Under the pieces are notes generated by a model, which was given only the letters and a program-made list of their open reading frames with translations, searched no databases and had not been told where the DNA came from. Source: an uncultured Candidatus Saccharibacteria bacterium (GTDB lineage: Bacteria; Patescibacteriota; Minisyncoccia; Phycocordibacterales; WO2-35-19). Taken from it: a stretch of 64,000 nucleotides of DNA. Below are positions 3,343 to 62,188 of this stretch, piece by piece. A program made the position numbers and the translations under genes. How positions within the stretch are numbered: position 1 is the first letter of the stretch; the number at the start of each line of letters is the position of its first letter. The DNA lies in assembly GCA_964392285.1 (NCBI GenBank), contig CAYMOW010000002.1, positions 1 to 64,000 on the forward strand, in the 5' to 3' direction.

Positions 3343-4722
3343 TTGAAAACAATGATTCTGGATAAAAATAATTACCACTTTATAGGCATCGGGGGGATTG
3401 GGATTTCGGCCATTGCCCAAATGCTTTTAAGGCAAGGCAAAAAGGTCAGCGGGTCGGACCAAGCAAGGTCGGAAATTACTGATGATTTGGAAAAGCTTGG
3501 CGCCAAAATATTTATTGGTCACAAAGCCGAAAATATTACCAAGGATGTAGAAGCAGTAATTTATACCATCGCTATCCCCGACTCTAATCCCGAGATGCAA
3601 GAAGCTAGAAATAGAGTTTTCGAGACAAAATCAGCCGTAGAGCGAACATCCACAGCGAAGCGAGGACAAGAGAGCGGAACGGCTGATTTTGTCGAGAAAC
3701 CCATCATTATTGCTTCCTACCCCGAAGCGCTTGGGGAACTTTCGAAACAAAAATACACTATCGCCATTTCTGGCACTCACGGCAAAACCACGACTACAGC
3801 AATGATCGGACATATTTTGCAAAAAGCTGGTCTCGAACCAACAATTGTTGTTGGTTCGAAAATGCTCTCCGAGAACGAAAACAAAGAGAGCAATTTTTAT
3901 GGCGGGGCAGGTAAATATTTGGTAGTCGAGGCTTGCGAGTATCGACGTTCTTTTCTCAATCTTTCGCCCCAAATTCTTGTGATTACAAACATCGAAGCAG
4001 ACCACCTCGATTACTATAAAGATCTGGCCGATATCGAGAGCGCTTTCGACGAACTCAAAGCCAAAGTGCCAAAAGACGGGCAAATCATCACCGAAGCTGA
4101 ATACGAAAAGGTAGAGATAAAGAAGGAGGATCTGCTTATCCCCGGCAAGCACAATATCAAAAACGCCCAAGCCGCCGTGAAGGCCGCCGAAGCAATCGGT
4201 ATATCCGCAGAAGAAGCCAAGGAATATCTCAAGAGTTTTCGGGGTACTTGGCGTCGACTCGAATATAAAGGTACAAAACAATCACCTGATCTGAAAATTG
4301 AAAATATTTTTTACGACGACTATGCTCATCATCCGAGCGAAATCAAGGCTTCCCTTTTGGCCTTGCGCGAGAGATATCCAGAGCACCACCTCATCGCCAT
4401 CTTCGAACCACACCAACAAAGTCGGACCAAACTACTCTTTGATGATTTTGTCTCATCGCTCTCTTTGGCTGACCTAGTCTTCATTGCACCAATCTACAAG
4501 GCGCGCGAGACACCCGACCCCACCATCTCCAACCAAATCTTGGCCGAAGCAGTCAACAAATTTAAGCCGAGTATGGCAGTGGAGGGCGTAGAAGAATTGA
4601 AAGAGAAACTATCACCCCCTAACCCCCTCTTGTATCAAGAGGGGGGACCAGACACAAAAACTTGTATCGTCCTAATGGGCGCAGGTGATATCTACAAATG
4701 GACACCTGCTCTCCTTGCCTAA
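3343..4722 (+). CDS. murC: UDP-N-acetylmuramate--L-alanine ligase MurC
   Basis: HFIGIGGIGISAIAQMLLRQGKKVSGSD N-terminus, IAISGTHGKTTTTAMIGHIL P-loop and a C-terminal Mur ligase domain; contains a roughly 30-aa insertion (KSAVERTSTAKRGQESGTADFVEK). Confidence 0.9.
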   Translation: MKTMILDKNNYHFIGIGGIGISAIAQMLLRQGKKVSGSDQARSEITDDLEKLGAKIFIGHKAENITKDVEAVIYTIAIPDSNPEMQEARNRVFETKSAVERTSTAKRGQESGTADFVEKPIIIASYPEALGELSKQKYTIAISGTHGKTTTTAMIGHILQKAGLEPTIVVGSKMLSENENKESNFYGGAGKYLVVEACEYRRSFLNLSPQILVITNIEADHLDYYKDLADIESAFDELKAKVPKDGQIITEAEYEKVEIKKEDLLIPGKHNIKNAQAAVKAAEAIGISAEEAKEYLKSFRGTWRRLEYKGTKQSPDLKIENIFYDDYAHHPSEIKASLLALRERYPEHHLIAIFEPHQQSRTKLLFDDFVSSLSLADLVFIAPIYKARETPDPTISNQILAEAVNKFKPSMAVEGVEELKEKLSPPNPLLYQEGGPDTKTCIVLMGAGDIYKWTPALLA

Positions 4723-12726: not shown

Positions 12727-12768
12727 AATGCAAAACTCGCCTTTTGGGCGAGTTTTGCATTTTGTGAT

Positions 12769-13094
12769 CCTCATTCTCATAAGCCGAATTCTGTTTCTTT
12801 GCAATAATTTATCTAGGTCCTAGATTGCTCTAGGACTCGAGCGGCACTCCCCTCGATTGCTTTCGGGGCACGGCCTTGCACAGAAGTAAGAGTTTAGTCG
12901 TTGCACCCGTATGTTGCCATACGATTACTCCACAAGGGAGCTCCTTGCCTTTCGGCTTGGACGTCACTGTTCGCATCTCGCGCCTCACGGCGGACGGGCA
13001 TTACCCGCTACTTGGCTCTCCAATCGAAATTGGAGCTGTGTTCGGACTTTCCTCTCCGACTAAAACGTCGGAGCTATTGCTCGGAATGAGAATC
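12769..13094 (-). ncRNA. rnpB: RNase P RNA (rnpB) candidate
   Basis: The minus-strand RNA contains the universal CR-I-like GAGAGGAAAGUCCGAAC near its 5' end and a CR-V-like AACAGAAUUCGGCUUAU near its 3' end. The P4 partners are GUCCGAA and UUCGGCU. The terminal P1 pairing is UCUCAUUC...GAGAAUGAG. The whole is about 326 nt and GC-rich. Confidence 0.6.
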
Positions 13095-23242: not shown

Positions 23243-25105
23243 TTATTTAGTTAAATATTCTATGTTGTATTTTATAAGATCATAAGCTTCTATTGTTATT
23301 GCTTTCTTTTTCAGGAGCAACTGCAATTCAGTCATAAAAAGCTTCACCAAAATTTTATTAACCTTTTTGTCAAAAACCTCTACTCTCTTTAATTTTACTG
23401 AACCATCAGGAAGTTTTTCTTTGACTACCTCTATTTTCTTATTGAATTTGATAGCACCATTAACTTGTTTTATCAGACTATCACGCACCTTTTTATCTTT
23501 AATCCAACCAAGATCGAAAGATTTGTTTATATCTCTTATCAGAGTTTCAAGGGTTATTTCTTCAACATCACTCTCCGGCAACGTGATTTTTGGTTCGCCA
23601 ATTTCTGCCGTCGGTTCACTTGCAATATAATCAACCACTACTTCATATTCAACCTTTTCTCCTTCAACAATATCTTTTTTCACAGTTTCGATCTTGTCTG
23701 TATCAGAATCAGATAACGCTACCGCCATATGATATTTACCATCAGAAGTTCCGACTAGTTCCACCTTGTAATCTCCCGCCAACCCATTAGGAATAATTAT
23801 CATTTTCAACCCCTCAGGATTACTTTCTCCTGTATAAATAGCTCCAGGTATACTATTGGTGTTTTTGGTTATAACTCTGCCTTGCGGATCTGTAATTTTG
23901 ACTTCAACCGGTGAAGCAAACCAAAAAGAAGTCAGATTATCTGGTTCTGGCGGTGGCACATAAGCAACGGATGGTTGTGGTAAAGAAAGAGTGGAGAAGA
24001 TATCGGAAATGGCTTTGGTCGGCAAATCACCGTGTTTCGAATCTACCTCAATGTGTTTTAGGAATTCACTGGGATTTAATTGGGCGTAAGCAGTCGGTAA
24101 AATTTTTGCAAACAATCTTTGCCAAAAATTCTGCATCAGAACTGGTGGAAATATGTCAATCCCACCAAAAGACGCACTGAGAGCCAGTACTCTATTATCA
24201 CCTTCGGTCGTATCTCTGATTGGGGTAATTGGCTCTGGTACTCCATCTACCCAAAGTTTAGTTTCCGAAGCACTCCTTGGGACAATCGGGATACTTTCTA
24301 TTGTGTCTTGACCTTTACCTGCAACTGTCAGAATGCCTCCGACATTTTGTAACTGCATTGTTGAACTATTAAGATTTAGGTTCTCTAGAAAATAATTCCT
24401 GCCTTGTTGAAGATTCTCATATGAGATCAATTCCCCATTCTCATCTTTAAGAAAATTATATAGCGGTAAAAGTTCCCCTATTGATGGAATAAAGCTGTGG
24501 ATGGTGTCGTAACTATCAGCAGTCTGAGCGGTCGCGGTGGTCATATACCAAAGATACAACCCCACCCCAGCCCGTGTTAGTTTATCCCAATTCTCTGGCA
24601 CAACACCACCTTCCCATAATACATAAACTTCAGAGCTACCCCAATTTGGAGTACCTAATAAAATAAGCTTGTTCACATCGTTCCTGTAATTATGACTTTG
24701 GATGTAACGCCTAGTCACCAAACCACCCATAGAGTGAGCGATTATATTCACTTTGCCAGTCGGAGAATTAGCAAGAGCCTTATCTATTGTTGGTATAAGA
24801 TAATCGGTAGCAGAATTTATATTGCTCTGCCTCCAATCATAAAAAGCAATGAAAAGTGTTTTGTCTTTTTCATAACCCGCTTTCTCTAGGGCATCGATCA
24901 TATTATCCCAGGTTTTATCAGATGGAAAGAAATCCCAACTCCCGCTACCATTCCTCTGTAGCATCACTTCCCAATTCCAAGACCCCATAATCCCGGGCAC
25001 TATGACTATTGGTTCTTTTGCTTCTTGAGCAAAAACTTGTTGACAAGGGTTAAATACAAAACTTGTCAAAAACAATAAAATTACAACCTTATGAAATATA
25101 TTCAT
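23243..25105 (-). CDS. secreted alpha/beta-hydrolase lipase/esterase with a C-terminal extension
   Basis: Signal peptide, IVIVPGIMGSW, and the GxSxG nucleophile elbow IIAHSMGGLV. The C-terminal 250 aa are Lys/Glu-rich. The region is AT-rich. Confidence 0.65.
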   Translation of the reverse strand: MNIFHKVVILLFLTSFVFNPCQQVFAQEAKEPIVIVPGIMGSWNWEVMLQRNGSGSWDFFPSDKTWDNMIDALEKAGYEKDKTLFIAFYDWRQSNINSATDYLIPTIDKALANSPTGKVNIIAHSMGGLVTRRYIQSHNYRNDVNKLILLGTPNWGSSEVYVLWEGGVVPENWDKLTRAGVGLYLWYMTTATAQTADSYDTIHSFIPSIGELLPLYNFLKDENGELISYENLQQGRNYFLENLNLNSSTMQLQNVGGILTVAGKGQDTIESIPIVPRSASETKLWVDGVPEPITPIRDTTEGDNRVLALSASFGGIDIFPPVLMQNFWQRLFAKILPTAYAQLNPSEFLKHIEVDSKHGDLPTKAISDIFSTLSLPQPSVAYVPPPEPDNLTSFWFASPVEVKITDPQGRVITKNTNSIPGAIYTGESNPEGLKMIIIPNGLAGDYKVELVGTSDGKYHMAVALSDSDTDKIETVKKDIVEGEKVEYEVVVDYIASEPTAEIGEPKITLPESDVEEITLETLIRDINKSFDLGWIKDKKVRDSLIKQVNGAIKFNKKIEVVKEKLPDGSVKLKRVEVFDKKVNKILVKLFMTELQLLLKKKAITIEAYDLIKYNIEYLTK

Positions 25106-25120
25106 TGTAAATTTTAATAA

Positions 25121-25603
25121 TTATAATATTTTTCCAGACGCATATCCCAAACCAAGTACCATAACGAAAAAGAAAATTGCCACAAAAACAGCCAGCAAAA
25201 TAAGTGCAACAACCAAAGAAATTACGAAATTCTTTAAGGTAAATTTACCGTGCTTTAGAACTATGTAGCAATAAAAAACCAACACTGACCAACCTAAAAC
25301 TGATATCGGTATCAAATCAAACACCTTGTTTTCTATAACACTTTGCAGATTATAACCATTTGAAAAATAATTATGAGTCAGTTCTGTTGCAGACCAAAAT
25401 CCAAACCAAGCACAAACCACAAAAGTCACAAGAGATGTTAGATAGGCTAGGATTACCTGCCACCAAGAGATTGATAATTTTCTTTTCCATTTTCTAAATC
25501 CTAAGTATGCAAAAGGTAAAAAAATAAAAAATGCTGATAGCAAGAAAAATACCCACTCGATAACGAGTATCAATGTAGGCCCCGCCCTAAAATAGGTTTC
25601 CAT
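25121..25603 (-). CDS. hypothetical membrane protein (about 4 TM)
   Basis: Hydrophobic ORF, AT-rich, no recognisable domain. Confidence 0.45.
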   Translation of the reverse strand: METYFRAGPTLILVIEWVFFLLSAFFIFLPFAYLGFRKWKRKLSISWWQVILAYLTSLVTFVVCAWFGFWSATELTHNYFSNGYNLQSVIENKVFDLIPISVLGWSVLVFYCYIVLKHGKFTLKNFVISLVVALILLAVFVAIFFFVMVLGLGYASGKIL

Positions 25604-25666
25604 TTGAGGTTATACACTTATGGTAGCACAACGACTTGATTCGTTTTACAAGCTTATCCACATAAT

Positions 25667-26761
25667 TTATTCAGCACAGATAACATAATGCAGATATTCT
25701 GTCGTCTTGCTTGCTGTATAATTCCTGTTTTCTGATTTATCAGCCCTAAAACGACTATGCTCTTTTGTAAAACATCCATATTTACCCCGGAGACTCATTA
25801 TTTCTCTTATATCATCGGGGGTCATCAAACCTTCATTGTTATAACTCAAAAATATATATTTGACTTTGGCCTTCAATATCAAATCTTTAAACGATTTTCT
25901 GACCTGGTTTTTTGAACAATACAAAGATTTCTGATCAGTATAATCTCGTAGACCAGTCTTCCCATATATTTTAGGATTATCATACCTAGCAATTGTCTCT
26001 AAAATATGATAATTCGTTGCATATTGACGATGATTATATGGTGGGTCAAGATATAAAACATCTCCGTTAATTTTTTCGACGATTTTATTTATATCCATAT
26101 TGAAAATTTCGTGATCTTGTTCATTAACAATCAATTCTGCTGGTTTCAAGATCAGACTACTTTGAGCTGTCTTTTTTAGATTCTTCAGGAAAGCTCCGTA
26201 GACGGATGCTGTGTTCGCATATTTATCAATCGATTCGACTAAACTAGCGATCAAAAAATAATATTCATCATCAGAGATTAAATCTTTCTCTTTCCAATTT
26301 TCAATTTTTTGACGAATAGCGTCGCACCGCATTCCATTTTCATTTGAAAAATATTGTCTTGATTCTTCTTTGTCTTTGGTTTCTCCGAGACAATAATTTT
26401 TATAGATAAAGCCTTTTACACCCTCCAAATTTGATAGATATTCACAAACAAAATCTTTACGTTTTTCTGTGTCAATATTTTTTAGACCAGCAATTTCTTT
26501 TGTTAGTTTTATAAATTTTAATTCCTTATGATTCCCAACATAGTGCCTATTCAATACATAACTGTAATATTGAATATCGTTAGAAATTATTTTGTAACCT
26601 CTTTTCTTGAAATAACTACCGACAACTCCAGTTCCAGCAAATAAGTCACAAAAAACCTTGCAGTTTTTATCAACTACTTTATTAATTGATTCTTCCAAGA
26701 ATTCTAACAAAGATAGTTTACTGCCGATATAATTCATAAATTCATGATAACATACCCGCAA
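25667..26761 (-). CDS. Dam-family (alpha-class, D12) N6-adenine DNA methyltransferase
   Basis: N-terminal NYIGSKLSLLEFL and FCDLFAGTGVVG (motif I); C-terminal LYLDPPYN (motif IV DPPY). Confidence 0.8.
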   Translation of the reverse strand: MRVCYHEFMNYIGSKLSLLEFLEESINKVVDKNCKVFCDLFAGTGVVGSYFKKRGYKIISNDIQYYSYVLNRHYVGNHKELKFIKLTKEIAGLKNIDTEKRKDFVCEYLSNLEGVKGFIYKNYCLGETKDKEESRQYFSNENGMRCDAIRQKIENWKEKDLISDDEYYFLIASLVESIDKYANTASVYGAFLKNLKKTAQSSLILKPAELIVNEQDHEIFNMDINKIVEKINGDVLYLDPPYNHRQYATNYHILETIARYDNPKIYGKTGLRDYTDQKSLYCSKNQVRKSFKDLILKAKVKYIFLSYNNEGLMTPDDIREIMSLRGKYGCFTKEHSRFRADKSENRNYTASKTTEYLHYVICAE

Positions 26762-26799
26762 TAAAATCTATACGAAAACATAGGCTTTTGTGGTAGTAT

Positions 26800-27549
26800 T
26801 TGCCTATGTTAAAAAACGACTTAAATAATGAACGAATTGGCGTCTCTGCTGAAATTTCAATTGCAGATATTTTTGAAATTCCTATCAGTGACAACTATCG
26901 AAATCGCGGAGCACAAGATATTACAAACACCATCAAACCTATCATTGCCGATATCTTCAACTTAAATAATATTCCTCCACCAATCAAACATGTTGCGGAA
27001 AATCAAAATACTATAGATTTTATACTTGAAGGCAATAAAACTTTATCCGTAAAAACAAATAAACAAAAATTGGGCAAAGCTGCACCACAAAAAATTGGCC
27101 AGGCATCATCAAACACTTGGTTTGCGATTTTAGCAGAACGATTAGGTATAGCATATATACCGACAGCTTATCCTGAAAAAGTCAAACTTTTTAAAATAAT
27201 TGCACTAACAAGGATCGAGGAACTACTTTTTATTTACTGGGAATACATGTTCGATTGCGATTTTTTGATCCATATTTTCAATATCGTTGATTCTAATAAC
27301 AACCTTACTCGTGATCCGAAATACATAGTAACTAAGAAAACCAGTAGCCCTATTTGGGATCCTGCAAAAATTACATTTACAAGGCCAACTGTATCCGAGT
27401 GGAATGAGAGCAATACTGTAAAATACGAATACGATGGTGTGGCAATAGGTGAATTTCAAGTCCACAACAATAGGGACAATTTTAAATTTCGTTTCAATAT
27501 GGCCGGTATTTTCAAGTTAATGACAGAAGGTCGTCTCAGTTTTTCTTAA
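26800..27549 (+). CDS. putative type II restriction endonuclease (hypothetical, sits between two methyltransferases)
   Basis: 249-aa ORF with no recognisable family. It is divergent from the Dam-like MTase and convergent with the second MTase; AT-rich. Confidence 0.4.
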   Translation: MPMLKNDLNNERIGVSAEISIADIFEIPISDNYRNRGAQDITNTIKPIIADIFNLNNIPPPIKHVAENQNTIDFILEGNKTLSVKTNKQKLGKAAPQKIGQASSNTWFAILAERLGIAYIPTAYPEKVKLFKIIALTRIEELLFIYWEYMFDCDFLIHIFNIVDSNNNLTRDPKYIVTKKTSSPIWDPAKITFTRPTVSEWNESNTVKYEYDGVAIGEFQVHNNRDNFKFRFNMAGIFKLMTEGRLSFS

Positions 27550-28321
27550 AAACCATTATGTATTCGTGTTTGAATATATAATAATCACTTGATAACGCGC
27601 GGTATCTCCAAATTCCTTCTTTATTCTGTTTGCCACGATTACCAACCATATTCTTTATTATAATACTTTTCAGAATTAGACCTAGTTTTTGAGCCTCATT
27701 CATACAATAAAAACCCAATGGTACCCACTTCCCCATTTTATATGCATCACCAATAACAATCGCCAAATATCTACCATTTTCCAAAACATCTATTGTATTC
27801 TTTAAAACTTCAGCAAATTTTCCTAAAAACTCTTTCAAGGATTTTGCGTTTGATAAATCATCTTTTAAGTCACTAAACTTTATAATATCCGCATATGGTG
27901 GGTGCAATATGGCCATTTGCACATTTTTCTTTTTGTGTTTTTCTAAAATATCTTTTACTTTTTCAAAAGTTTGGATTTTTGTGCTGTCACCTATAATTAG
28001 CTCAGAAAAATTACCTTTCGCATCAATATTCTCACTGACATAATCAACGAGTTTTTTCTGTATATCGATCCCAATAAAATTCCTGTTTAGACTCTCTGCC
28101 TCATAAGCAGTGGTTCCACTTCCTAAAAATGGGTCCAGGATTGTTTCGTTCTTTTTTGTGTACCTAGATATTAACTGGTGAGGAATTTGTGGAACAAAAT
28201 TCCCATGGTAAAAACCGCTATGTTTTCCTGACTTGTCTCTTTCTGAAATAATCCAGAGACTATCCGTCCAAATTTCTGATTCTTTCCACTTACTTAAATC
28301 AAGATCATTAAAAATTGGCAT
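27536..28321 (-). CDS. DNA methyltransferase, N4/N6 amino-MTase (PF01555-like)
   Basis: HGNFVPQIPHQLISRY (motif X-like), ILDPFLGSGTT (motif I), ILHPPYADI (motif IV-like). The table ORF extends to 28441, but those 40 extra codons read through tRNA-Glu; ATG at 28321 (MPIFNDL) is used instead. Confidence 0.7.
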   Translation of the reverse strand: MPIFNDLDLSKWKESEIWTDSLWIISERDKSGKHSGFYHGNFVPQIPHQLISRYTKKNETILDPFLGSGTTAYEAESLNRNFIGIDIQKKLVDYVSENIDAKGNFSELIIGDSTKIQTFEKVKDILEKHKKKNVQMAILHPPYADIIKFSDLKDDLSNAKSLKEFLGKFAEVLKNTIDVLENGRYLAIVIGDAYKMGKWVPLGFYCMNEAQKLGLILKSIIIKNMVGNRGKQNKEGIWRYRALSSDYYIFKHEYIMVFKKN

Positions 28322-28332
28322 CTTAATATTTG

Positions 28333-28406
28333 TGACGCTACCGGGATTTGAACCCGGGTACCAAGCTTGAAAAGCTTGTGTCCTAACCAGACTAGACGAT
28401 AGCGCC
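28333..28406 (-). tRNA. tRNA-Glu (TTC)
   Basis: Reverse complement GGCGCTATCGTCTAGTCTGGTTAGGACACAAGC-TTTTCAA-GCTTGGTACCCGGGTTCAAATCCCGGTAGCGTCA. Confidence 0.8.
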
Positions 28407-28500
28407 TTTCGACTCGCTTTGCTCGCTTCAAGGCAAGCCAAGGAGAGAGTAATAGTAACATATTTTGATAAAAAGGCAAAAAATGATAGGCTGTAATTAG

Positions 28501-28587
28501 GGAAGAGTGGCTGAGTGGTTTAAGGCACCGGTTTCGAAAACCGGCGTGGGGGCAACCCCACCGTGAGTTCAAATCTCACCTCTTCCG
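28501..28587 (+). tRNA. tRNA-Ser (CGA), long variable arm
   Basis: Acceptor GGAAGAG/CTCTTCC, anticodon stem CCGGT/ACCGG with loop TTCGAAA, variable arm CGTGGGGGCAACCCCACC, T-arm GTGAG-TTCAAAT-CTCAC. Confidence 0.8.
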
Positions 28588-28589
28588 CT

Positions 28590-29771
28590 ATGATAATTCT
28601 GGGTATAGAGACAAGTTGTGATGAGACGGCAATCAGTGTCGTCAGAGCAGAGGGCGATGTCGACAAGCCGGTTTTTGAGGTGCTTGGAAGCAGTGTTCAG
28701 AGTCAGATTGATATTCACAAAGAATACGGTGGCGTCTTCCCCACCCTCGCCAAACGTGAGCACATCATAAATTTGCCTGCTGTTTTAATTGAGGCACTTA
28801 GGAAGGCAAATTTAATTTCCAATTTTCATTTTTCAATTTTCAATGAATCACAAAACCCCGAGGAGGTCTGGCAAGATTTTTTTGATAAATTGCCAAAAGT
28901 AGATGTCGACATGATTGCTGTAACCGTTGGCCCAGGACTCGAACCCGCCCTGTGGACAGGTATAAACTTCGCCCAAGAGCTGGGGAAAAGATGTGGAAAA
29001 CCTGTGGTTCCAACCAATCACATGTTGGGCCATATTGCTTCGGTGCTATTGAACAAACAAATAACCTTTCCAGCTATCGCCCTACTTGTAAGTGGCGGCC
29101 ACACTGAACTGGTCTTACTCAAAAGTTGGGCTGACAAAAAGAAAATCGGCGAAACTCAAGACGACGCGGTCGGCGAAGCTTTCGATAAGGTAGCTAGGAT
29201 GCTTGGCCTGCCCTATCCGGGTGGACCAGAAATTTCCAAACTAGCCGAAGAAGCCCGGATTCAAAATATTAACCTGGAGAAAAAGTTACCAAGACCAATG
29301 ATTAATTCTGGTGATTTTAATTTTTCTTTTTCGGGTTTAAAAACTGCTGTTTTGTATTATTTGAGAGACCTGACCTCACCCCTGACAATGGGTCCTCTTC
29401 CGTCTGGAATTCCCTCCCCTGATCAAGGGGAGGGATCAAAGGGTGGGGTGTCTTTTCAGACAAAATTAGCCGTAGCGCGAGAATTTGAAGACTCGGTCAT
29501 CGAAACTCTACTAAGCAAAACTCGCAAAGCTATCGATGCTCATTCGCCAAAAAGTTTGATCATTGGCGGTGGTGTCATCGCCAACAAAGCTCTGCGAGAA
29601 AACTTTCTCAAACTCAAAGAAGTCTACCCCAACCTCGAAATTTTCATACCCGAAAGAGAACTCACGACCGACAACGCCACCATGATCGCAATGGCCGGAT
29701 TTATAGAATACTTGCAAAATAAAACCGAAATACCCGCCAAGCTCGAAGCTCGCGGGTATTTGGAAATCTAA
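28590..29771 (+). CDS. tsaD: tRNA N6-adenosine threonylcarbamoyltransferase TsaD (Kae1/OSGEP family)
   Basis: MIILGIETSCDETAISVV start 2 nt after tRNA-Ser (the table ORF begins inside the tRNA); HMLGHI, SGGV, and a C-terminal ASKD fold. Contains an extra segment, roughly 40 aa, EALRKANLISNFHFSIFNESQ.... Confidence 0.85.
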   Translation: MIILGIETSCDETAISVVRAEGDVDKPVFEVLGSSVQSQIDIHKEYGGVFPTLAKREHIINLPAVLIEALRKANLISNFHFSIFNESQNPEEVWQDFFDKLPKVDVDMIAVTVGPGLEPALWTGINFAQELGKRCGKPVVPTNHMLGHIASVLLNKQITFPAIALLVSGGHTELVLLKSWADKKKIGETQDDAVGEAFDKVARMLGLPYPGGPEISKLAEEARIQNINLEKKLPRPMINSGDFNFSFSGLKTAVLYYLRDLTSPLTMGPLPSGIPSPDQGEGSKGGVSFQTKLAVAREFEDSVIETLLSKTRKAIDAHSPKSLIIGGGVIANKALRENFLKLKEVYPNLEIFIPERELTTDNATMIAMAGFIEYLQNKTEIPAKLEARGYLEI

Positions 29772-38393: not shown

Positions 38394-40040
<1,647 letters not shown>

Positions 40041-40144
40041 TTACAATTTTCAGTTTTCAATTTTCATTAAATTTCCAATTTCTCAATGTTTGAAAATTAG
40101 AAGATTTAATCATTTATTGAAAATTTTAAATTATAAATTGAAAA

Positions 40145-40498
40145 TTAATTGATAATTGCCAATATATTCTCCTCCTTCAAAATGTAATATTCTTCGCCTG
40201 CGTATTTTATTTCATCATAACCGTAGCGAGAAAAGACGACCCGATCACCAACCTTGACCGAAGGTTTGATCAAAACCCCATCATCCCACCTGCCCTCGCC
40301 CACCGCTACAACCTTGCCTTGCTCAGGCTTTTCCTTATTAACAGTGTCGGGAATAATAATACCCGAAGCTCTTTTATCGCCGATCTCTTCTGAAGCCAAA
40401 GGCCTCAAAACCACTCGATCGCCCAAAGGCCATAAGCCAAAAGTCGATCCGGACTTGGCTACAGACTTGTTTGTTTTTTTCTTTAATGGCTTTTTCAT
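40145..40498 (-). CDS. groES: co-chaperonin GroES (with a roughly 20-aa basic N-terminal extension in this ORF)
   Basis: LWPLGDRVVLRPLASEE...GKVVAVGEGR...GDRVVFSRYG. Confidence 0.85.
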   Translation of the reverse strand: MKKPLKKKTNKSVAKSGSTFGLWPLGDRVVLRPLASEEIGDKRASGIIIPDTVNKEKPEQGKVVAVGEGRWDDGVLIKPSVKVGDRVVFSRYGYDEIKYAGEEYYILKEENILAIIN

Positions 40499-50443: not shown

Positions 50444-50707
50444 TTATTTTCTCTTGAGTCGATAAACCTCCAGCACTTCTTTGACCGCCTTGCTTTCGCT
50501 ACCCTTCTTCATCTGATGTACGACGCAAGTATTGAGATGGTTCTCAAGTAAAGCGTCCTCAACGCTCGAAAGCGCCCGTTTGACCGCCGAAGTCTGGGTA
50601 ATAACATCGATACAATAGACATCTCGGTCGATCATTTCTTGCAAACCTCTGACCTGACCTTCAATAATTTTGAGCCTCCTAATTATACGTGATTTGGGTG
50701 TAATCAT
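50444..50707 (-). CDS. csoR: CsoR-family copper-sensing repressor
   Basis: LKRLKIIEGQVRGLQEMIDRDVYCIDVITQTSAVKRALSSVEDALLENHL: the RcnR/CsoR fold with Cys and His ligands. Confidence 0.85.
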   Translation of the reverse strand: MITPKSRIIRRLKIIEGQVRGLQEMIDRDVYCIDVITQTSAVKRALSSVEDALLENHLNTCVVHQMKKGSESKAVKEVLEVYRLKRK

Positions 50708-50845
50708 ATTTTTGAAAATTGAAAATTATAAATTGATAATTCTATACTATACCCCCCTAGGGTATTAGTCAAGTCAAACCAAAACCACTTCTGGGGATAA
50801 TCCAAAAGTGGTTTTGGCCGGTTTCGGCTTTGGTCGAACCAGAGA

Positions 50846-51552: not shown

Positions 51553-51999
51553 TCAAAAATAAATAAGATACCAGACTAGGAGTGCCAAGGCGCCCCACCA
51601 ACCAAGGTCAGAAAAAATAAGACTGACTATTATTTTGTTCTGCCAAGAAGCGGGCAAAAGCTCCTCCGCTCGACCCTCCCTCTCTTTTTTCAAAAGATAT
51701 GGGCTGACGCGAAAAGATAAAAACAAGCCATTGAGTATGAGCACGATAGCAATCAGAGCCAAGTACATTGGCAGACCAACAAAAGGTTCGCTCCTAAAAA
51801 ATATACCGCCCCCGATAATCGCAAGAAAAATACCCGCCCAAATCATCGGCTTAGTGACTTTGTGGGTGCGCGTGGTAGCCTCGGTCCAGTAATTTGATTT
51901 TCGCCCTAAAAATCCATGAATATCAATCACCGTCACAGCTCCAAGTCCAACCACAAACCCAGCGACAAGCAAGAACAATCCGATGAAATCAAGAATCAT
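51553..51999 (-). CDS. hypothetical membrane protein (4 TM, no cysteines; not DsbB/VKOR)
   Basis: Hydrophobic ORF; Cys-free, so unlikely to be the DsbA redox partner. Confidence 0.45.
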   Translation of the reverse strand: MILDFIGLFLLVAGFVVGLGAVTVIDIHGFLGRKSNYWTEATTRTHKVTKPMIWAGIFLAIIGGGIFFRSEPFVGLPMYLALIAIVLILNGLFLSFRVSPYLLKKEREGRAEELLPASWQNKIIVSLIFSDLGWWGALALLVWYLIYF

Positions 52000-52050
52000 A
52001 AACTTATAATAACACCAAACTAGTTAGTAAAAAATTCTCAAACTCACAAA

Positions 52051-52467
52051 CTAAGAGTTGAGGTAAGTAATGGTCAATTGCAAAACAGTGGCAAAAGAGA
52101 CCCACAAGAGATATGGAATGTTCGCATAAACTACCCACCTCAGATCACTAGAACCTTGAGGCACAAGTCGCCATATTAGGACCATCCCCCAGACCAAAGT
52201 AGCCAGAACCAGCAAAATATCGATCGAGGCCAAAAGATTGTTTTGCAGACCAAATTGAATCGGTGTAAAAGCAAAATTAAAAAACAGATTCAAAACAAAA
52301 GGCAACGCCACAAATCGCGGAATCTTGCGCTTCAAGGCAGAGTAAAAGACTTTACCAAAAGAAATGGCAATGATGGCATAAAGTACCGTCCACACCGGAC
52401 CAAAGACCCAACTCGGCGGCGCCCAAGATGGTTTGATCAAATCTATATACTTAGTTGTTTCGTTCAT
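52051..52467 (-). CDS. tspO: TspO/MBR-family tryptophan-rich sensory protein
   Basis: PSWAPPSWVFGPVWTVLYAIIAISFG: the canonical TspO N-terminus and a 5-TM layout. Confidence 0.85.
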   Translation of the reverse strand: MNETTKYIDLIKPSWAPPSWVFGPVWTVLYAIIAISFGKVFYSALKRKIPRFVALPFVLNLFFNFAFTPIQFGLQNNLLASIDILLVLATLVWGMVLIWRLVPQGSSDLRWVVYANIPYLLWVSFATVLQLTITYLNS

Positions 52468-52515
52468 GTTATTTTATAACTTACATAAATTTGATAGTAT
52501 TGTGATGATTTGAGT

Positions 52516-55836: not shown

Positions 55837-55989
55837 TCAATTCGATGAAATAAAAAAATATATACCTATAATAACACCAAAAGAAATCGCGATGATGGCA
55901 TAAAGTACTGTCCACACCGGACCAAAGATCCAACTCGGCGGCGCCCAATCCGGTCTAATCAAATTCAAATACCTTGTTGCTTCGTTCAT
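55837..55989 (-). pseudogene. tspO: truncated duplicate of the tspO 5' end (51 codons)
   Basis: Encodes MNEATRYLNLIRPDWAPPSWIFGPVWTVLYAIIAISFG... then diverges and stops. The DNA is about 88% identical to 52351..52470. Confidence 0.7.
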
Positions 55990-56018
55990 ATTGTTTTGTA
56001 TTAATTTGAAATTTTAAA

Positions 56019-61364: not shown

Positions 61365-61474
61365 AGTGGTTTAATTTTCAATTTTTAATTTAGAATTTTC
61401 AACAAATGATTTAATTTAAAATTTATAAACATTGAAAATTTAATGAAAATTGATAATTGATAATTCTAAATTTC

Positions 61475-62188
61475 TTAAAGTATGTATTTTCCAGTTGGAT
61501 CGTCTCTTATAATCTTGCCGTTTTGCATCGTAATCACCCTTTTACCGATCGAGTCGATCACCCCCTTGTTGTGAGTGGTTAAAATCACGGTCGTGCCCAG
61601 ATCGTTGATACGTTTCAAAATTTCGACAATATCGTAGGTGTTGACCGGGTCGAGGTTGCCAGTCGGCTCGTCGGCAATAATGATATCCGGCTGATTGACA
61701 ATCGCCCGCGCGATCGCCACCCTCTGCTTTTCACCGCCCGAAAGTTCGTTTGGAAAATTCCAAATTTTTGGTCCAAGATCCACAAGCTCCAAAACATGCG
61801 GCACATCAGACTCAATCTCCTCATCGCTCCGACCAGCCGCTTCCATAGCAAAAGCGATATTTTCGAAAACATTTTTTTGCGGTAGAAGACGAAAATCTTG
61901 GAAGACAGCGCCAATCTTGCGGCGCACAAAGTTGATGTCGTCATCGTGCAAAGCGTGAATATCGGTGCCCTGCAACAAAACCTTGCCCGCAGTCGGCCGG
62001 TCTTCGGCTAAGAGCATTTTGAGCAAAGTAGTCTTGCCGGCGCCGGATGGCCCAACAATAGAGACAAATTCATTAGGTTCGACTACAAAGGAGACGCCTT
62101 CTAGGGCTACATAATCGCCATTGTATTTTTTGGATACATTATCAAAAGTAATCACAGCCTTTATTATATCACAATCCAAACAATGCAA
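61475..62188 (-). CDS. ftsE: cell-division ABC ATPase FtsE
   Basis: ITFDNVSKKY..GPSGAGKTTLLKML, LSGGEKQRVAIARA, and IIADEPTGNLD. Confidence 0.85.
   Translation of the reverse strand: MHCLDCDIIKAVITFDNVSKKYNGDYVALEGVSFVVEPNEFVSIVGPSGAGKTTLLKMLLAEDRPTAGKVLLQGTDIHALHDDDINFVRRKIGAVFQDFRLLPQKNVFENIAFAMEAAGRSDEEIESDVPHVLELVDLGPKIWNFPNELSGGEKQRVAIARAIVNQPDIIIADEPTGNLDPVNTYDIVEILKRINDLGTTVILTTHNKGVIDSIGKRVITMQNGKIIRDDPTGKYIL

Follow-up and report, generated by a model that had tools for sequence, protein, structure and literature searches.

We analysed a window of 64,000 nucleotides (positions 1 to 64,000 of contig CAYMOW010000002.1, assembly GCA_964392285.1) from an uncultured Candidatus Saccharibacteria bacterium, for a short AT-rich repeat built on the heptanucleotide AATTTTC (complement GAAAATT) that occurs at four sites: within tsaD, between groES and groEL, between ftsE and ftsX, and immediately upstream of csoR. 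Genomes of the Candidate Phyla Radiation (CPR, or Patescibacteria) are tiny and dense, and by the usual account contain few repeats and little mobile DNA. The G+C content of the window is ~45%. The tsaD gene is on the plus strand with its ATG at 28590; the listed GTG start (28563) overlaps the tRNA-Ser(CGA) gene at 28501-28588, and since the ATG begins 2 nt past the 3′ end of that gene, tRNA 3′ processing could leave an essentially leaderless tsaD mRNA. The groES-groEL and ftsE-ftsX operons are both on the minus strand. TsaD was identified from homologues and solved structures, GroES and GroEL from their N- and C-terminal sequences and homologues, and CsoR, FtsX and an ABC-transporter ATPase in the FtsE position from Pfam; the gene names in a first-pass annotation of this DNA, made from the sequence alone, were right.

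A repeat family with heptad arms

Tandem Repeats Finder detected AATTTTC arrays of period 7 at all four sites named by the first-pass annotation, with 4.1-4.4 head-to-tail units at each. They lie at 28814-28844 inside tsaD (4.4 copies on the plus, sense strand, encoding (I)SNFHFSIFN), at 40038-40066 in the groES-groEL spacer, at 61373-61402 in the ftsE-ftsX spacer and, reversed, at 50712-50741 upstream of csoR. Shuffled sequences ruled out chance AT-richness as their source: the 13-mer TTTTCAATTTTCA occurs 28 times in the window with at most two mismatches, against 9.7 ± 3.1 expected (none of 100 shuffles reached 28), and ATAAATTGATAATT occurs 10 times against 1.4 expected. The fifth exact 13-mer, at 4292-4304, is not an element, being ordinary MurC coding sequence (DLKIENIFYDDYAHHP).

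Two of the sites hold full-length elements. The groES-groEL copy (40029..40147, core about 40035-40148) runs from the groES stop codon (40145-40147) to the groEL ATG (40028), with its AATTTTC arm at 40038-40066 and a GAAAATT-type arm at 40114-40148. The other, at 61365..61477, runs from the ftsE stop codon (61475-61477) to the ftsX ATG (61364) and is reversed relative to the first; because both operons are on the minus strand, the two have opposite orientations relative to transcription. Both occupy their intergenic gap exactly, from stop to start. The groES-groEL spacer (plus strand) can be aligned with the reverse complement of the ftsE-ftsX spacer over 113 nt, and the two copies agree at about 82-85%, the lower figure being the share of identical columns when gaps are counted. 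The score is 124 where the null gave 26 ± 4 (maximum 46), and the alignment continues through the non-heptad core (…CATTAAATTT…TCAATGTTT…AATCATTT…), which includes …CATTAAATTT…TCAATG…AATCATTT…. Each full copy is a quasi-palindrome of ~113 nt in which a core separates an AATTTTC-type arm from a GAAAATT-type arm, and the G+C content is estimated by eye at roughly 15%.

The csoR copy is a half element, a right arm at 50700..50741 in the leader directly upstream of the csoR ATG (50707), in which 41 nt match the right half of the element (score 55, null 21 ± 4). The tsaD copy is a single arm that shares 31 of 35 positions with the arm between groES and groEL (89%; score 50, null 17.5 ± 2.8, maximum 27). 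The tsaD, groES-groEL, ftsE-ftsX and csoR sites are thus a real dispersed family with heptad arms, not a product of chance, with copies in both orientations: two full (opposed), one half and one arm in 64 kb. [quoted passage not shown]

Just upstream of the csoR leader we also noted an inverted repeat, ATACCC-CCCTA-GGGTAT (50749-50765), which we take to resemble a CsoR-type operator and which would then imply csoR autoregulation.

Insertions in tsaD and at the groES-groEL junction

Compared with solved TsaD structures, the TsaD of the window is longer in two places: residues 72-102, where the solved chains have residues 66-70, and residues 259-292. Insertion 1, NLISNFHFSIFNESQNPEEVWQDFFDKLPKVD, adds about 26 residues net (28809..28904, plus strand) between helix α1 and the IAVTVGPG strand. 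Its heptad arm of 35 nt is in frame and yields NFHFSIF. The first-pass annotation had quoted the tsaD peptide correctly (NLISNFHFSIFNESQ) and had placed this member of the family, as we find it, in frame within a segment that has no counterpart in solved TsaD/Kae1 cores. An AlphaFold2 model (predicted local distance difference test, pLDDT, 83.9) has residues 72-88 as coil following the helix of residues 50-71 (block pLDDT about 67) and residues 89-99 as a short helix; on this model, insertion 1 is translated as a loop plus a short helix.

The loop from helix α1 (REH…) to IAVTVGPG has a basal length of 28 residues among 120 TsaD homologues. In many CPR orthologues this loop has LISNFQFSIFN… inserts of 36-78 residues, and a second set of homologues shows …ELWxMNYELWEKN… there. 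An alignment of orthologues, which the first-pass annotation had suggested as a check on the insertion, gave a divided answer: the insert (LISNFQFSIFNEF...) is at the identical loop in many CPR TsaDs, with 57-76% identity, but the closest relative (P0003) and most others lack it. On a neighbor-joining (NJ) tree from 335 core columns the NFQ insert is found in at least 10 scattered clades. Both of the nearest TsaD relatives of the window, P0003 and P0005, are without it and keep the common ancestral-type sequence (…GIKESEID…), and the tsaD of L004 is likewise without it. The orthologues are syntenic (gyrA … tsaD, surface protein, leuS, prsW, hsp20), and since syntenic orthologues have the insert too, a recent, private invasion of tsaD is ruled out.

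Several comparisons bear on how the tsaD insert has changed. One orthologous loop (L193) is a perfect (AATTTTC)x4, while another (L192) has a different heptad, (GAATTAT)x4. L001 and L194 have about 50 nearly identical nucleotides in common (TTTAATTTCTAATTTTCAATTTTCAATTTTCAATGAATTTTCAAAT), though their proteins are in different clades. In L003 the insert of the window is interrupted by 21 extra nt, and nucleotide identity between the window and L003 is highest over the insert and its flanks, a mosaic pattern that suggests recombination. A single comparison of two 99% identical sequences, P0001 and P0002, showed the same insert with no variation in copy number or length. By these sequence comparisons the tsaD insert is old and patchily distributed among CPR bacteria, and it appears to have moved together with its flanks by recombination.

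Insertion 2 of tsaD, also in frame (29355-29456, LTSPLTMGPLPSGIPSPDQGEGSKGGVSFQ), is predicted to be disordered (pLDDT <50). It contains a perfect 10-bp GC-rich palindrome at 29411-29435, TCCCTCCCCT-GATCA-AGGGGAGGGA; this occurs once in the window, and the idea of a second dispersed family was dropped. Of all tsaD DNA, insertion 2 is the best conserved between the window, L003 and L004 (third-position identity 0.8-1.0), and other CPR TsaDs have PPLTKGRV…GGV-type inserts at the same site. Outside tsaD, a low-GC island (0.32-0.37) at 24000-28450 adjoins tRNA-Glu and tRNA-Ser genes. It encodes a D12-class N6-adenine DNA methyltransferase (25667-26761), an unannotated open reading frame (ORF; 26800-27549) and an N6/N4 DNA methylase (27536-28330), and is probably a restriction-modification cassette.

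For the groES-groEL junction we gathered 67 groES loci from metagenomes, independently of the repeat. In 17 relatives at 82-87% GroEL identity the spacer is mostly 4-36 nt long, without a Shine-Dalgarno sequence (e.g. TAA-ACCT-ATG). L128 has a collinear element of 119 nt in the same orientation, 79% identical to that of the window including gaps (shuffle null 59%, maximum 64%). In an NJ tree of GroEL the sister of L128 is L126, whose spacer is empty (4 nt), and L128 was never the sister of the window in the leading groupings of 200 bootstraps (covering 183 of 200). The element common to the window and L128 implies either two gains or many losses; neither the TsaD tree nor the GroEL tree agrees with one ancient gain that was then inherited vertically. 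At both loci, filled sites can be paired with empty orthologous ones: 119 nt in L128 against 4 nt in L126 between groES and groEL, and in tsaD an insert present in the window and L003 and absent from L004.

Other inserts also occur at this junction. Some are arrays of ATTTCGG (L129) or ACGAATA units (L127, L131, L135, L144), some are paired arms of other units (L165; L171, CGGATCA; L175, a 9-mer; L183, GAACCTA), and some are GC-hairpin modules (L133, L142, L163). Because different heptad and palindromic inserts are found there, the junction is a hot spot or a permissive site.

Spread, orientation and folding

The heptad has a simple coding property. (AATTTTC)n is stop-free in every frame, and its translation, NFQFSIF, repeats every 21 nt. 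The sequence itself shows that the complement, (GAAAATT)n, has TGA at each unit junction, and because 7 = 1 mod 3 these stops fall in all three frames. It follows that only the AATTTTC sense can survive in genes, in multiples of 3 nt and in a surface loop.

A scan of 185,579 genomes with AATTTTCANTTTTCAATTTTCA found at least 120 loci, which among the matches listed come from Bacteroidota, Acidobacteriota, many CPR lineages, cyanobacteria, Planctomycetes, Firmicutes and others. Of the 108 scorable arrays among these matches, 13 are in long ORFs, all 13 in the sense direction and none antisense. Intergenic arrays in the same set have no orientation bias (29 sense and 24 antisense upstream of starts; 31 and 46 downstream of stops). 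Five ORF arrays, each an in-frame (AATTTTC)>=3 giving an NFQFSIF-type peptide, were confirmed by Pfam and are in unrelated enzymes of different phyla: UvrC (Yanofskybacteria; L117:5013-6338), Fmt (Peribacteria; L101:2888-3766), RsmA (L086:3208-4119), a PrmC-like methyltransferase (L057:59-1858) and a radical-SAM enzyme (L119:1793-3019). TsaD carries a peptide of the same type.

The bare array is less specific. (AATTTTC)3 turns up across many unrelated phyla, frequently with other heptad units next to it, and 42 viral contigs have it as well; this spread across phyla and viruses marks it as a generic heptanucleotide simple-sequence repeat. A phage vector for the element was considered and rejected: the pattern ending in CAATG, which is specific to the element, had 0 viral matches, and the 42 matches of the bare array are uninformative. 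Five loci from Thermoanaerobaculia, Acidobacteria and Bacteroidales (L027, L053, L028, L089, L065) have a reverse layout, (GAAAATT)n - GC-rich hairpin - (AATTTTC)n, in which the arrays lie on either side of terminator-like GC stems and lengthen them; such modules are sometimes repeated.

We built a hidden Markov model (HMM) from the two full copies of the window and ran it on the loci from the heptad scan; these were preselected for heptad content, and similarity in the arms is partly due to that ascertainment. Matches to nearly the whole model (positions about 7-122, 40-70 bits), from elements about 100-140 nt long, were obtained in metagenome-assembled genomes of the Patescibacteria group, Saccharibacteria, Moranbacteria, Kuenenbacteria, Microgenomates, Levybacteria and Gribaldobacteria. 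Moranbacteria has three copies within one 8-kb locus, and L083 and L060 also have multiple copies. Matches in Bacteroidota and other phyla are mostly of arms only, the exception being a near-full-length match in a Saprospiraceae locus (L056). CPR copies have the arm-end motif TTTTCAATG(A/T) in common, and AATTTTCAATGAA links ORF copies, among them the tsaD insert of L001, with intergenic CPR elements.

Eleven of 13 elements fold as one long imperfect hairpin (z -2 to -4.3), and about 8 of the 13 are at most 6 nt from the upstream stop codon and at most 16 nt from the point where a co-directional ORF starts downstream; the hairpin usually has its base within 10 nt of both codons. In the window the groES-groEL RNA hairpin is strong (-23.9 kcal/mol, z = -4.1) and the ftsE-ftsX hairpin weak, no better than shuffles (z = -1.0). 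The tsaD copy has one arm only, no hairpin partner and no predicted RNA structure (z = -0.4). The tsaD insert of L001 matches the model at positions 10-92 (39.6 bits), yet does not fold (z = +0.4). We rejected the tsaD insert as a hairpin or whole element, since it is unstructured and its right half matches the right arm of the element only weakly.

A convincing Shine-Dalgarno sequence, GGGAGG, precedes 2 of 63 crude gene calls of the window (13206, 14379), with three further 4-mer matches flagged, and none was seen before groEL, ftsX or csoR. At these three genes, as at CPR loci elsewhere, heptad arrays lie within a few nucleotides upstream of starts that have no Shine-Dalgarno sequence. A TAnAAT-like -10 box stands 6-9 nt ahead of the ATG in many genes of the window and suggests that most of the mRNAs are leaderless.

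Other identities for the element were tried. Rfam gave no match at gathering score in the window, with sub-threshold noise only over 39980-40200. No terminator-like site was found within the elements, contrary to an intrinsic terminator reading. A Fur-box-like identity was considered for TGATAATTGATAATT, but its repeats are direct and not of the 7-1-7 inverted form.

Elsewhere in the window, a 125-nt direct repeat (52354-52478 and 55876-56000, 86% identical) is adjoined by a 44-nt repeat (51976-52019 and 55838-55881, 84% identical), the copies being 3.5-3.9 kb apart. The gene for RNase P RNA (bacterial class A, 111.7 bits) is on the minus strand at 12764-13092, next to five clustered tRNA genes.

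Origin and possible function

The ingredients of this family, heptanucleotide repeats, palindromic MITE-like elements and in-frame palindromic elements of the Rickettsia kind, are each known already. Rickettsia palindromic elements (RPEs), described by Ogata et al. (2000) and reviewed in PMC10969869, are AT-rich palindromes of about 100-150 bp in the small genomes of host-dependent bacteria. They are found, like the CPR element, both between genes and in frame in unrelated housekeeping genes, where they encode a family-specific peptide at positions compatible with the fold. The CPR element differs in lineage, in having arms of tandem heptanucleotides, and in that ORF copies consist of a stop-free arm and not the whole element. 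The TAACTGA heptamer repeats of Beggiatoaceae, cyanobacteria and Bacteroidetes (MacGregor, 2015; PMC4679880) have stops in three frames one way and a 7-residue peptide repeat the other way, and occur just upstream of start codons with few Shine-Dalgarno sites. Tandem 7-nt units, the split between stop and open orientations, proximity to starts poor in Shine-Dalgarno sequences and a patchy distribution are common to both systems. In the CPR element, however, the unit is another one, the arrays are paired as inverted hairpin arms around a conserved core, and intercistronic gaps are filled.

With MITEs, REP/bacterial interspersed mosaic elements (BIMEs) and Correia-type palindromes the element shares being small, non-coding, bounded by inverted repeats, dispersed both ways, often within operons, and polymorphic. 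Its ~113 nt and AATTTTC/GAAAATT arms, with hairpin z down to -4.3, agree with the size (<300 bp) and terminal inverted repeats of MITEs. Unlike REP/BIME sequences, which are GC-rich units of 20-40 bp with a GTAG/CGTC tag and an associated RAYT transposase, it is AT-rich and has neither tag nor RAYT context. Cyanobacterial short tandemly repeated repetitive (STRR) sequences are heptamer repeats of a similar kind. We found nothing relevant in the literature on CPR repeat elements or under the literal repeat strings, and the combination of heptad-array hairpin arms, CPR-wide spread, filling of stop-to-start gaps and NFQFSIF-type insertions in essential enzymes appears to be undescribed.

The explanation that we favor, at even odds (a probability of about 0.5), is a MITE- or RPE-like non-autonomous repeat on a heptanucleotide-repeat base that is tolerated in loops and intercistronic gaps. 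Elements would be inserted or generated recurrently, in the fashion of MITEs and RPEs, on a generic heptanucleotide repeat substrate, and would persist only where they do little harm. In ORFs only the AATTTTC-sense arm would be tolerated, in a surface loop and in multiples of 3 nt, as in tsaD. Between genes, fold-back of the element would bring the stop of the upstream gene and the start of the downstream gene together at the foot of a single hairpin, with the A-rich arm and its stops in three frames 0-16 nt before the AUG, and in this way termination-reinitiation coupling could survive an insertion of 110 nt.

Several observations weigh against this explanation. The flanks of the element show AT-rich tetranucleotides only (TAAT, AATT, TTAA), possibly by chance in AT-rich DNA, and no consistent target-site duplication could be defined around the copies. 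No transposase or parent insertion sequence with matching termini was evident in the window, and no search for one was made. The copy count covers 64 kb of the genome, and the trees are NJ trees of single proteins. Further objections come from nucleotide conservation. Where amino acids are identical, codons also agree in 73-100% of cases within the tsaD insert, against 35-58% for those amino acids in the rest of tsaD, an excess that is significant (p < 0.05) in 8 of 10 pairs, the pairs being non-independent. Between the window and L128, fourfold degenerate sites are saturated (21% identity in groES, 37% in groEL), yet the orthologous groES-groEL copies of the element keep their 79% identity. 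Conservation of the tsaD insert and of the groES-groEL copy exceeds what simple neutral decay would leave of an old selfish insertion. It could stem from recent independent insertion out of a conserved family, from recombination, from self-homogenization of tandem repeats, or from selection on DNA or RNA.

Because the data cannot separate these causes, substantial weight stays with a translational coupling or binding-site role, even if we think it unlikely overall. The element would here be a dedicated cis-acting RNA signal of largely leaderless, Shine-Dalgarno-less CPR bacteria, whose hairpin joins the stop and start of successive cistrons and puts the GAAAAUU arm, with its stops in three frames, directly before the AUG. 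There it would favor reinitiation after termination or serve as the binding site of a factor such as S1, Csp or CsrA, as has been proposed for TAACTGA repeats (PMC4679880); the conservation just described, in the groES-groEL copy and in the codons of the tsaD insert, would reflect that function. The spanning of stop-to-start gaps, the closeness of the hairpin base to both codons, the lack of Shine-Dalgarno sequences before groEL and ftsX and in the genome generally, and the published parallel of heptamers just upstream of Shine-Dalgarno-poor starts all speak for it. Against it, most close relatives manage with a groES-groEL spacer of 2-36 nt and no element, as does the sister of the L128 lineage; ORF copies have no partner arm or predicted structure; the csoR copy turns the opposite arm to its AUG; the arrays listed from the genome scan have no orientation bias toward the neighboring start; and the ftsE-ftsX hairpin is no better than shuffles. 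The first-pass annotation had offered a shared regulatory or RNA-processing site as its alternative, and this is weakened in its strand-specific form because two full copies are opposed in two same-strand operons, but the element, being quasi-palindromic, may still act as an RNA hairpin. A bolder version, that heptad-armed hairpins are a selected, CPR-wide solution for expressing downstream cistrons without Shine-Dalgarno sequences, bringing the stop beside the start, forcing termination and permitting reinitiation, seems to us distinctly improbable.

We are just as doubtful that no mobility was involved and that each array arose where it now stands, AT-rich seeds having been lengthened by replication slippage, with convergence on a favored unit and self-homogenization. 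Heptanucleotides are reported to be the commonest class of long simple-sequence repeat in prokaryotes (Mrazek, 2007, as cited in PMC4679880). The wide occurrence of (AATTTTC)3 in unrelated phyla and viral contigs, often beside other heptads, and the different units at one tsaD loop and one groES-groEL junction in different lineages, are what slippage would produce, and self-homogenization could account for the synonymous conservation. Slippage alone is insufficient, however, because the copies of the window and of L128 stay collinear through some 40 nt of core outside the heptads, and their inverted arms match; the arm-end motif common to CPR copies and the constant length between P0001 and P0002 also argue against it. 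Least probable of all, with little to recommend it, is that the elements are internal promoters: (TTGAAAA)n intrinsically gives TTGAAA-N17-GAAAAT, and leaderless groEL and ftsX transcripts might start there. Such a pair, TTGAAA-17-GAAAAT, is on the gene strand and ends 10 nt before the ftsX ATG, and many genes have the -10-like box 6-9 nt before the ATG, but the groES-groEL and tsaD matches are on the antisense strand and counts of the hexamer pairs do not exceed those in shuffles (3 vs 1.4 ± 1.2; 1 vs 1.0; 1 vs 0.3). We rejected the promoter reading on these grounds, the strands being inconsistent.

Under the favored explanation of a tolerated MITE- or RPE-like repeat, the family would be a second, independent case of "selfish DNA in protein-coding genes" after Rickettsia, again in reduced genomes. 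A recurrent hairpin repeat sits here in essential operons (groES-groEL, ftsE-ftsX) and enzymes (TsaD; elsewhere UvrC, Fmt and RsmA), and it would account for many of the low-complexity NFQFSIF/ISNFQ-type insertions of CPR proteins that make annotation, alignment and structure prediction harder. One concrete anomaly, open to testing, is the raised synonymous conservation of the tsaD insert. Were heptad-armed hairpins selected after all, a conserved factor would recognize the heptad DNA or RNA itself, including arrays in ORFs such as that of tsaD. The elements also give a handle on the translation of internal cistrons in bacteria that are largely leaderless and lack Shine-Dalgarno sequences.

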